A DNA stretch of 64,000 nucleotides from positions 1,339,550 to 1,403,549 of the forward strand of contig MU006094.1 in NCBI GenBank assembly GCA_010093705.1, in the 5' to 3' direction. This DNA is from Patellaria atrata CBS 101060 (taxonomy: Eukaryota). This document shows positions 25,421 through 29,408 of this stretch, in pieces. A program made the translations under genes and the position numbers. The notes under the pieces were generated by a model. That model did no database searches. It saw nothing but the letters and a program-made list of their open reading frames with translations, and was not told the DNA's origin. Each line of letters opens with the position of its first letter. Positions within the stretch are counted from its first letter, which is position 1.

Positions 25421-26217
25421 CTATATGCTGAGTGCCATGATAGAGTTGACAATATCATTATCGTTCTCTTTGAGAGCCTTAATCGCCTTCTTCCTTGAGA
25501 CACTGGCTTGTTGCATGACAAGCTCAATATCTTTGTCCTCGAGACCCGTAGCATCGACTTCCTCGCCGTCATCTTCATCGTCGTCGTCTTTCTTGGGGTC
25601 GGTGGATTCGATGGCCTTGCCTTTGTCTCCATGGTCATGGCCGGCGTGCGGGTCGGCATCGCTGGCGTTGGCGAGCTGCTGAGCTGCTGAAGCTTGAGCT
25701 TGGGAGTTAAGATCTTCAATCTTTGCTTCACCGAAGATACTGATGAATGGTCAGGTATGGTTGGACTCAAGACGTTAATGAGAGGAATTGGAAACCTACA
25801 TCCAGGTGTTGCTTGAAGGTGACTTGTATACGTCTGGCTGATTGATCACGAACAAGATCTATAATATAAAGATTAGCCTCTGGTCACAATGAGGTGAAAA
25901 GTCTATGGATTCTAGACGTCACAGCTGATAACTTGTGAACGTCGAAGGTTGGCCGCACTCAGTTCGGAAATATCACTCACATTCTTCGGCCTCCTCAAAG
26001 TAACCCTGGTAATACCCTCGACGTGCTTCAGACCTAACTTAGCAATTGCCTTCCTAGCTTTCTTCTCATTGCGGGAATGCACAGCAACAGATGCGCCGGC
26101 TGGGATATTGGCCTCGCCGGCCTCTACCTCGGAATCGGAGCTATCACTTGCATCCTCGACCTCGGCGCCCTTCTTTTCGGGCTCGTCTGGAAGTTCTTCG
26201 ATACGAGGATTCGACAT
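25421..26217 (-). CDS. EGD2: Nascent polypeptide-associated complex subunit alpha
   Basis: Three exons: [44 protein letters not shown] | [19 protein letters not shown] | [18 protein letters not shown] ([36 protein letters not shown]). Confidence 0.96.
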
Positions 26218-26654: not shown

Positions 26655-27336
26655 CTACGCCTTTGCCGATGCGCGGACCTTTGCCAGAGACTTTTGAACT
26701 TCGAAGCGGGCCTATTTTTGTAAAGTTAGCAACCGTGGCAAGCTATCTCTCTAGTATTCTTTTGGCGCCGATAACATAGAGAATGTCGTCCTCTCTTAAT
26801 CTCCACTAATTTTGCCATCCGCGATGCACCCATCCAGTACCTCCTACGAGGGGTAAAAGACTAAATGCCTACCTGCTTCCTCAACCTCAACAGCTTGAAC
26901 CTTTCAAAGTCGTTCAATTGCCGTCTCTTTTCGCTCTTCGCCCTTGACTTGGCCCAGGAGGTATTGCTGAAGGCCTCATCGACCTTTGCCTTCTCCCAAA
27001 GCCCCTTTACAGTTGACTGGCCCGTCGCACGGGGGAGCTTGGGAATAACGATAGGTGTGAGTGTGACATTGGAGAGAGGAGAGGAGTGGCGCGGAACGAT
27101 CTTGTCCTTGTCTGAGGAAGGGCCATCGACGAGAACCTATATTGATGTTAGCCACAGCTACAACCATACTCGGACTCCCCTAAGAAGTTCGTTTGATCCG
27201 TCGAACGTACGCGCTTGTGATCGATGATTTCAACAATCGTCGCGAGCCGTCCAGCGTATGGACCGCTCGAGAAGAGAACAACACGGCCAACTTCGACCAG
27301 TCTCCATGAGCTTGCAGTGATCTCGGCGTCACCCAT
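26655..27336 (-). CDS. RPL14: 60S ribosomal protein L14 (eL14)
   Basis: [36 protein letters not shown] | [25 protein letters not shown] | [18 protein letters not shown]. There is an additional 5'-UTR intron at ~27406-27350. Confidence 0.96.
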
Positions 27337-27667
27337 TATGGTTGTGTTGCTGAGAGAGAATAATCAGTATCAGAACTCTTTATGTTCGTAACTTAGCACT
27401 ACTCACTTTGTTTGGGAGTAATTGGAGTAAACTGTAGATTGTCGCTGCCGTATCTTCTGGAATGGAGTTGCGGAATTCGCGTAGTCGGTTGTGTGCCGGG
27501 AAAAAGCCGGACGCCAAGCCCCTACCTTCAATTGCAGATGATTTTCTTCAGTTTCAACTTCAAGTCACCAACTTCAAACCGCCAGACCAGACAAACATTT
27601 CTTCGTCTGCGATTTTATGGTAAGTTCTGATGTACTTTTTTGAACTTCATCCTCCATTCTTTCCGAT

Positions 27668-27774
27668 TCTTATGATGTTATAATTTGCGATTGACTTCAA
27701 TGACCGGAATCTCTCGCCGGAGATTCTTAACGGCGTTGAAGCTATGAAATTCCATTCTTACATATTCTGACTCT
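27668..27774 (+). ncRNA. Box C/D snoRNA, snR87/U16(SNORD16)-like; predicted guide for the 18S Am436-equivalent
   Basis: Lies in intron 27620-27836. C box ATGATGT (27672); guide TAATTTGCG (27681-27689), complementary to 18S CGCAAAUUA; D' TTGA; internal hairpin CTTCAATG..GAATCTC-TCGCCG-GAGATTC..CGTTGAAG; D box CTGA (27767-27770). The 5' end closely resembles yeast snR87 as I recall it (AUGAUGAUAUAAUUUGCGAU). Confidence 0.85.
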
Positions 27775-27939
27775 TTTACAACTCAACGTCCACTCATCAA
27801 CTCGATGTTAAGGTCAAACAATCTAACTATCAATAGGATGCTCTATTGGATCTGTAAAGTCCCACTCGAAACTCCTACAATTGGATGTCCTTCGTAAGCA
27901 CAAATTTTATTTCCACCGCCCCGAACACCTAGCACCTTC

Positions 27940-28024
27940 GCCCAATGATTAAAATCTATAAGCACACTAGATAGTAACTGACCCTTCGGGGCATGATCCT
28001 CTTTACACCAAGATCACTGAGGGC
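27940..28024 (+). ncRNA. Box C/D snoRNA with two guides: 25S Um2347-equivalent (snR65-type) and 25S Cm1437-equivalent (U24-type)
   Basis: Lies in intron 27894-28083. Terminal stem GCCC/GGGC; C box ATGATTA (27945); guide CTAGATAGTA (27967-27976) before D' CTGA (27978); CCC-TTCG-GGG hairpin; C' ATGATCC; guide CACCAAGATC (28006-28015) before D CTGA (28017-28020). Confidence 0.88.
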
Positions 28025-28454
28025 TTATCACTGCAACCTCATATTCACTGGAAATGTCACATTTGCCTACTGACATTGTATAGATAATCATTATCCTACT
28101 CTAGCTACAGCTTCGACCATAACGTGTTCAATATATTCGAAAAAAGGTAGGTCGTGTTGCTGAGCTCGTTGGAACCTGTATTTGGGTGTCACTCCATGCC
28201 GATACACGATTGGAGGGCTCCGCGCTCATTTTTCGAAATGGAGGACTTCAAATTGTCCAGTGGCTATACCTCAATCTAGATAGCTACTGTCACATGTCAC
28301 TTGAGAACATTTTTCATCTTGTACACTACTACGAACATCATCAATGCCAAAATCATTCATCCAGCGAGAATACCATTCATCAAGCGCATGATGCGAAGAA
28401 TTGCTTTTTCAGAACTAACTTGTAGCTCAAACTAGGATTAGGCCTTTCGAGAGA

Positions 28455-29408
28455 ATGGATCTCACCCCAGTCCATATTAGGGGCAAAAAGCGTCCTCGGA
28501 CAAACGCCGATTCGGGTCAAAACACTATTAAGCGGAGCCGCGGTCGGCCTCCCAAGGCACCAAAGGCTGAACCGGCTTTGAAACTCTCAGGCACATCGTC
28601 CACTGTTCTATCGGCTTCCGAAAAGCTCCAAAAGCGTCGAAAACCCCGAAGACCGCTCTCTCGTCTAGAGCAGCTTCCCAACGAGATTATCCAAACCATC
28701 TTTCTTGAAAGTCAGAATGTTGACCTACCCGGTTGCTCCCCCCATCTTACACGTGTTCTGAACTCTGAGCATATGTATCTCGAGTTTTGCGTACAAACAT
28801 ATCTTAAGGAGGACGACGAGGACGGCCAATTTTGGTTCCCTATCTCGCGAGGGCTACCACAGCGTCGCTTCTTTACTTTCCAATTTTGGGGCAAGCTTGA
28901 AAATCGGCTAGTGAGCACAATTGAATTATTGAGGGCGAATGGCGACGACATTGAAGCTTTGAAGTATTGGGCTTATGAAATACCAGTGAAATTATTGTCC
29001 GGGCCATGGAAGACGAACGAAAGCCTAGACGAAGATCAGAACTTCAAATTTCTGAGCGATCTGCACCGAAAAAAACTCTGGCCTCCATTAGAAGGTAAAG
29101 GAGTTATGCAAGCAATGATACAGGGAATACGAAATGCTGTGATGTGTAACAATCAAAGGGTTTTTAATATCCTTATCAGTTTCGGTCTCCATTTTGACCT
29201 CTACGAAGGCACCAAAGATTTCACGGAGCTTATCAGATATGCCGTGATTGAATGTGGCTGCAACGAGGACATGGTTGGTCCATTATTGCGCCATAGTCCT
29301 GTAACTTTCGACTATATGGATCCGGAGCTCTGGGCCTGGGTCGAGAGAAACAAAGATACTGGAAATGGTAAAGGCGAATGGTTGATGGAGATATTAAGGC
29401 TAACCTAG
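28455..29408 (+). CDS. Hypothetical nuclear protein with an AT-hook-like motif, an F-box-like segment and a helical/ankyrin-like C-terminus; probable snoRNA host gene
   Basis: 317-aa ORF with basic NLS-like stretches, KRSRGRPPK (AT-hook core RGRP) and LSRLEQLPNEIIQTIF (F-box-like). A splice acceptor at 28425 lies 29 nt upstream of the ATG. Confidence 0.75.
   Translation: MDLTPVHIRGKKRPRTNADSGQNTIKRSRGRPPKAPKAEPALKLSGTSSTVLSASEKLQKRRKPRRPLSRLEQLPNEIIQTIFLESQNVDLPGCSPHLTRVLNSEHMYLEFCVQTYLKEDDEDGQFWFPISRGLPQRRFFTFQFWGKLENRLVSTIELLRANGDDIEALKYWAYEIPVKLLSGPWKTNESLDEDQNFKFLSDLHRKKLWPPLEGKGVMQAMIQGIRNAVMCNNQRVFNILISFGLHFDLYEGTKDFTELIRYAVIECGCNEDMVGPLLRHSPVTFDYMDPELWAWVERNKDTGNGKGEWLMEILRLT

Follow-up and report, generated by a model that had tools for sequence, protein, structure and literature searches.

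In Saccharomyces cerevisiae, U24 and snR65 are two separate snoRNAs, as the preliminary description of this locus had stated and as the available part of the yeast modification table agrees (Sloan 2016), whereas the locus studied here, in Patellaria atrata CBS 101060, appears to place a U24-type guide and an snR65-type guide on one RNA. This raises the question of what kind of RNA is encoded here, which nucleotides its two guides would address, and how both came to share a single molecule. Within the window, by which we mean the whole stretch of 64,000 nucleotides analysed, we consider it likely, with a probability of about 0.75, that positions 27940-28024 encode an intron-borne box C/D snoRNA, predicted to be the filamentous-fungal counterpart of U24/SNORD24 and to guide modification at the equivalents of yeast 25S C1437 and U2347.

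Architecture and predicted intronic setting

Every part of a box C/D snoRNA is present at 27940-28024 on the plus strand (Table 1), and the earlier claim of a textbook structure, with a GCCC/GGGC stem, C, D', a UUCG hairpin, C' and D, holds for each element at its position. Indeed, the trait that marks the class, a C box and a D box joined by a short terminal stem, is found here as ATGATTA, CTGA and GCCC/GGGC. The whole-molecule fold is no more stable than those of shuffled sequences (z -0.08), a common finding for C/D snoRNAs that counts neither for nor against the candidate. The candidate occurs as a single copy in the 64-kb window, where R1, a model built from its homologues, scores it at 88 bits.

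Table 1. Features of the snoRNA locus in window coordinates
Feature	Position	Strand	Sequence, score or basis
Divergent ribosomal protein eL14 (RPL14) gene, two exons read	26861..27336	-	Pfam Ribosomal_L14e E 2.5e-28, KOW motif
Predicted host intron 1	27620..27836	+	splice signals read from sequence
Afu_514 (RF01515) box C/D snoRNA, inside predicted intron 1	27668..27772	+	63.3 bits against a 39-bit threshold
Predicted host intron 2 (190 nt)	27894..28083	+	GTAAGC 27894-27899, TACTGAC branch site 28068-28074, AG 28082-28083
Candidate box C/D snoRNA, 85 nt, U24-type scaffold, two guides	27940..28024	+	sequence, Rfam, homologues
Terminal stem, 5' half	27940..27943	+	GCCC, pairs with GGGC 28021-28024; sequence, covariation
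C box	27945..27951	+	ATGATTA (UGAUUA variant), one change from RUGAUGA
D' guide	27967..27976	+	CTAGATAGTA; +5 = A27973, opposite N. crassa 26S U2309 (= yeast U2347)
D' box	27978..27981	+	CTGA; one nt (A) between guide and box
Internal hairpin between D' and C'	27982..27991	+	CCC-UUCG-GGG; sequence, fold
C' box	27993..27999	+	ATGATCC; sequence
D guide	28006..28015	+	CACCAAGATC; +5 = G28012, opposite N. crassa 26S C1418 (= yeast C1437)
D box	28017..28020	+	CTGA; one nt (A) between guide and box
Terminal stem, 3' half	28021..28024	+	GGGC; sequence, covariation

The candidate had also been described as a canonical intronic box C/D snoRNA, a view borne out by its sequence parts together with the predicted intron signals. 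Within this predicted intron its distances to the 5' splice site and to the branch adenosine are 46 nt and 49 nt, respectively. Branch sites were surveyed in 57 distinct contexts, made up of 56 loci and the window: 54 of them contain a CTRAY motif followed by YAG downstream, and in 48 of these 54 the branch adenosine lies 46-56 nt after the snoRNA, with a median of 51. On the upstream side, GTRNGY occurs within 150 nt in 34 of the 57 contexts, a count obtained with a strict expression that probably misses some sites.

Predicted intron 1 of the same host carries Afu_514, the sole Rfam match in the 64-kb window at gathering thresholds, and in 19 of the 20 loci scanned with Rfam an Afu_514 match on the same strand precedes the candidate's homologue by a few hundred bases. 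Like the candidate, this conserved same-strand neighbour is an intronic two-guide C/D snoRNA, and the spacing of the two fits one shared host transcript, as far as can be read from the sequence. The neighbour belongs, however, to a different family and is not a relative of the candidate; its targets differ, one being an 18S A436-type site and the other a 25S site (available part of Canzler 2018). In A. fumigatus, Afu_514 was reported as an orphan that maps between Afu6g03830 and Afu6g03840 (Jöchl 2008, in the portion covered here). Its N. crassa counterpart is Nc CD10. According to the accessible text of Canzler 2018, the family is grouped with snR87 under the name CD_10 and has a second guide that is Pezizomycotina-wide.

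The other conserved element of the neighbourhood is RPL14, whose first exon is conserved in about 50 of the 87 related metagenome loci described below (BLASTN), and the RPL14 exons are the only other blocks conserved with these loci. We could speculate that the snoRNA host and RPL14 possibly share a bidirectional promoter region. The host exons are not conserved among the related loci, and the host transcript may thus well be non-coding; the locus reads as a putative two-snoRNA host transcript with non-conserved exons. Across the 87 loci, no conserved sequence was found downstream of position 28050. An ORF with a NAC domain (nascent polypeptide-associated complex alpha subunit) lies downstream of RPL14 on the same strand (25912-26217, minus), and a 317-aa ORF at 28455-29408 (plus strand) has neither a Pfam match nor nucleotide conservation in the related loci. 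The snoRNA introns may lie in the 5' UTR of this ORF or in a non-coding host transcript of their own.

Further candidates between the snoRNA and this last ORF were considered and rejected. A third snoRNA or H/ACA gene at 28148-28433 was discarded on account of a fold no more stable than those of shuffles (z -0.38) and a lack of conservation in the region, and a SNORD36-like match at 28382-28446 (plus strand) was discarded on account of its score (23.5 bits, E 1.4) and its absence of conservation elsewhere. The latter shares positions with a TAG and with an AACTAAC that resembles a branch site. Another CTAGATAG string (28276-28283) lies in the inverted repeat GTGGCTAT/ATAGCTAC (28260-28287, plus strand), which is not conserved in the related loci and whose region folds no better than shuffles; the string is probably there by chance.

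Predicted targets and family relationship of the two guides

As the window contains no rRNA, the guides were compared with published stretches of large-subunit rRNA, namely those printed for N. crassa (Liu 2009) and yeast (Taoka 2016) and a C. albicans primer. Against the N. crassa 26S segment shown there with Nc CD50, the D guide pairs without a break over 10 Watson-Crick positions (-17.6 kcal/mol), and its +5 nucleotide, G28012, lies opposite Cm1418. Together with Am1430, Cm1418 makes up the U24 sites of N. crassa (Liu 2009, Table 1), and the U24 sites in yeast are Cm1437 and Am1449 (Sloan 2016, available part). The candidate thus carries the D-box guide for the C1437-equivalent of 25S/28S rRNA by which SNORD24 is recognized; with these 10 pairs, the position of C1418 and SNORD24 as the best Rfam family, the assignment of this guide to the Cm1437-equivalent, a U24 target, proved right.

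The D' guide likewise has an unbroken run of 10 Watson-Crick pairs (-13.8 kcal/mol), here with the segment of N. crassa 26S rRNA that surrounds U2309, and its +5 nucleotide, A27973, lies opposite U2309 itself; the target stretch is identical in a C. albicans 25S rDNA primer. N. crassa Cm2299 corresponds to the snR64 site C2337 of yeast and N. crassa pseudouridine 2313 to yeast pseudouridine 2351 (Liu 2009; Sloan 2016, as far as their available parts go), and from this common offset of 38 we equate U2309 with yeast U2347. In yeast, an RNase T1 fragment has this U, within an identical context, as Um, and deletion of snR65 abolishes this methylation (both in the accessible part of Taoka 2016). 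The candidate and S. cerevisiae snR65 have the same predicted target nucleotide, the U after UAC in the helix-61 stretch as printed, and the guide that places the U2347-equivalent at +5, as expected of snR65, is present as the D' guide. The proposal that the D' guide lands on the Um2347-equivalent, an snR65 target, was therefore confirmed, within the published stretches available.

Compared with the N. crassa sequence, both guides are antisense elements of at least 10 nt that lie one nucleotide before D or D' and put the modified base at +5, as is usual for the class. Each is only 10 bp long, which is the lower guide limit used in the N. crassa catalogue (Liu 2009). Judged on the published N. 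crassa, C. albicans and yeast rRNA, both target assignments are correct. The uridine has been linked to pseudouridylation as well: in N. crassa, the H/ACA guide Nc ACA18 is predicted to act on U2309 (Liu 2009), and in yeast snR9 and snR65 compete at this nucleotide (available parts of Sloan 2016 and Taoka 2016). Thus, the N. crassa prediction mirrors the yeast snR9/snR65 pair, as far as these sources extend.

A comparison with Rfam by cmscan had been put forward as a check in the preliminary description. The best family is SNORD24/U24 (RF00069), matched over its full length (model positions 1-76; E 0.013 in a 3 kb search and 0.0005 in a 116-nt search), but the score of 31.3 bits stays below the gathering score of 41, as do the scores of all 20 homologous loci scanned. 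Boxes, stem and D guide account for the score, and the consensus D' region is unmatched. Over the 116 nt, no snR65-named family appeared at E<=10, and this comparison, confined to whatever snR65 model Rfam may contain, gave no similarity to an snR65 family outside the 10-nt guide. The D' guide for A1449/G1450 that belongs to the budding-yeast and plant form of SNORD24 is missing from the candidate, as had been claimed: the snoRNA does not contain its core, and a search for the exact core TATTTGCTAC gave no match in the loci or anywhere else in the 64-kb window.

With SNORD24 (RF00069) and S. pombe U24, the candidate shares the box C/D architecture with a 4-bp terminal stem and the guide core CACCAAGAUC-N-CUGA before box D, targeting the C1437-equivalent; S. 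pombe U24 is intronic as well. In contrast, the SNORD24 consensus and S. pombe U24 have a AUAUUUGCU-type D' element, for the A1449/G1450 region, where the candidate has its guide for the U2347-equivalent, and the SNORD24/U24 C box is UGAUGA instead of UGAUUA. A further comparison is with Nc CD50, the U24 homologue of the filamentous ascomycete N. crassa, which guides the same cytidine (Cm1418) as the candidate. The A1449-type guide is borne there by another RNA, Nc CD51 (U24b), and the candidate likewise lacks it. Since CD50 (Cm1418) and CD51 (Am1430) are separate RNAs, like U24 and U24b of S. pombe (Liu 2009), a distribution of the U24 functions among distinct snoRNAs has already been described in S. 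pombe and N. crassa. However, Nc CD50 differs from the candidate in that its guide directly follows the C box (it is annotated as the D' guide) and in that it contains a (UGUA)n repeat, is intergenic and has no U2309 guide. Either Neurospora has rearranged its U24 gene, or a family member like the candidate went undetected there.

Conservation among fungal loci

We scanned metagenome contigs with a pattern of 24 specified bases, consisting of the D' guide, a gap, the D guide, any nucleotide and CTGA, which returned 87 stretches. We estimate that, for each gap length, a single match by chance would take some 10^14 positions of random sequence, as an order of magnitude. With two 10-pair guides, each with a correct +5, and a pattern that recurs in 87 stretches, the predicted feature is more than chance. 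All 87 loci contain the pattern; one is cut by a contig end, and from the remaining 86, which could be used, came 48 different snoRNA sequences 77-97 nt long, which together with the window make up an alignment of 49 rows. Identity to the window outside the 24 pattern-fixed columns ranges from 0.45 to 0.71 with a median of 0.58, and the median over all pairs is 0.54. BLASTN detected no similarity in the intron and host-exon sequence around the homologues, and the guides thus persist where neutral sequence is saturated.

Several parts of the molecule that the pattern left free are conserved or, in the terminal stem, change in a compensatory manner. In the terminal stem, 89.8% of the 196 cells in the 49 sequences are paired, 33 of them changed on both sides (GC, UA and CG alternatives); this level was reached by none of 500 shuffles, and slid controls gave 10-63%. 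The C box reads ATGATTA in 40 of the 49 sequences and the canonical RTGATGA in only 2, and its GA is invariant across all of them though not required by the pattern. At D', the guide-N-NTGA spacing is identical in 49/49, so that one and the same U is opposite +5 in every case, and the box keeps its G and A throughout while its 4-mers vary (TTGA 13, ATGA 13, GTGA 11, CTGA 10 and GAGA 2). Within the TGA of the C' box, T and G never vary, and A is kept in at least 90% of the 49 sequences. The invariance of the D box is uninformative, CTGA being fixed by the search pattern. The internal hairpin has at least 3 bp in 29 of the 49 by a crude per-sequence fold, and its sequence varies between lineages.

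Because the 87 loci were chosen for having both guides, the proportion of relatives without one of them cannot be derived from this set. As a guide-independent check, a prokaryote genome collection was scanned for the neighbouring Afu_514-type snoRNA. Both of the two loci found in this way, a small sample, are followed downstream by a homologue whose D' guide is intact (R1 E 9e-15 and 6e-08); in one of them the first, 5'-most nucleotide of the D guide is U instead of C, which would still wobble-pair. The two contigs, L088 and L089, come from bacterial MAG records titled Ferrimicrobium sp. and Acidobacteria bacterium, and they are likely to be eukaryotic (fungal) contamination of bacterial bins, given intronic snoRNAs with spliceosomal signals. 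Across the loci compared, the two-guide combination is not special to this locus and marks a widely conserved family.

Alternative readings and significance

One challenge to a second methylation guide is that the RNA could be a single-guide U24 orthologue, in which the D guide alone methylates and the D' pairing is a helper- or chaperone-type contact with helix 61, or is unused. The D' duplex is a weak one, rich in AU, 39 of the 49 sequences have a non-canonical D' box, and the N. crassa and A. fumigatus screens, in the parts of their tables covered here (Liu 2009; Jöchl 2008), list no C/D guide for the U2347-equivalent. In yeast CLASH data, moreover, snR65 is the sole guide of 43 without a hybrid over its reported site, which would make pairing at this site hard to capture. 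Nevertheless, a D' element without a methylation role fits poorly with a guide-to-box spacing that never changes among the 49 sequences, with a D' UGA and a C' UG(A) that are invariant or nearly so outside the search pattern, with a targeted U that is a proven Um in yeast (Taoka 2016, available part), and with an intact D' guide in both loci found without reference to it, and we regard this reading as rather improbable. Far less credible still is a silent or decaying relic, that is, a snoRNA pseudogene in an unspliced region. In its favour are the non-consensus C box and a search for sequencing runs that carry the stretch, which found two of DNA, with contigs identical to the window and possibly its source, and none of RNA. 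On the other hand, that C box is the norm of the family, the stem, both guides and all boxes are intact and the branch-site distance is kept, the candidate is the only copy in 64 kb, and its conserved neighbourhood has been kept.

How the snR65-type guide came to sit on this scaffold is a separate matter. The preliminary description had proposed that guides were shuffled or fused between families, which nothing here demonstrates; the data show only a lineage-wide U24-type scaffold with a D' guide for the snR65 site. An snR65-type half and a U24-type half could have been joined by recombination in an ancestor of the filamentous ascomycetes. Liu 2009 discuss the recombining of halves of two single-guide snoRNAs as a route to double guides, target translocation between fungal families has been described (Canzler 2018, accessible text), and the U2347 site has different carriers in yeast and here. 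Yet cmscan detected no snR65-family similarity beyond the guide, the alignment with SNORD24 spans the entire molecule, and a 10-nt element can arise stepwise, by point changes in the free D' element of a single-guide U24, all of which make such a fusion unlikely. According to the same part of Canzler 2018, it is a general feature that the family addressing a given site varies between fungal lineages, and that antisense elements acquire new targets specific to a lineage. It is tempting to speculate, and we do so with some doubt, that the snR65 function moved onto the U24 scaffold in filamentous ascomycetes, with the competition between Um and pseudouridine kept, a UGAUUA C box, and a fixed snR87-type partner beside RPL14.

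The literature covered here has little to say on this arrangement. Our search found no paper joining snR65 and U24 snoRNA in fungi and none on Afu_514, nothing relevant on U24 for Aspergillus or Pezizomycotina, and, as judged by titles and abstracts, nothing on snR65 in filamentous fungi. A search for snR65 in the S. pombe supplement gave 0 matches, the T. rubrum paper contains none of the terms looked for, and the guide strings in full text returned only unrelated uses and Candida 25S primers. U24, snR24, snR65 and CD_50 are unnamed in the available main text of Canzler 2018, to which this statement is confined; on balance, the two-guide combination is likely to be tabulated already in the supplement of that work.

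For the preferred reading, an intron-borne U24-type snoRNA with two working guides, the RNA would be freed from intron 2 of the host transcript by splicing, debranching and exonucleolytic trimming, and the box C/D proteins would join it at its C/D and C'/D' motifs. With its D guide, the RNA would then direct 2'-O-methylation of the cytidine in 25S rRNA that corresponds to yeast C1437, the classical U24 function, and with its D' guide that of the helix-61 uridine corresponding to yeast U2347, the function of snR65 in S. cerevisiae. We infer expression, processing and both methylations in Patellaria atrata from the sequence.

The mechanism is an ordinary one and the guide arrangement a mildly interesting one, in a combination unlike that of budding yeast, fission yeast or the published N. 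crassa U24 homologue; how box C/D guides work is understood as before. As a widely conserved fungal snoRNA that scores below the SNORD24 threshold, however, it is left unannotated by Rfam-based pipelines. The family illustrates clearly how a single methylation site can have one carrier snoRNA in budding yeasts and another in filamentous fungi. Moreover, it leads to the prediction that the helix-61 uridine near the RPL3 contact would be 2'-O-methylated in filamentous fungi, possibly together with pseudouridylation, and would thus be present as Um or pseudouridine-m.
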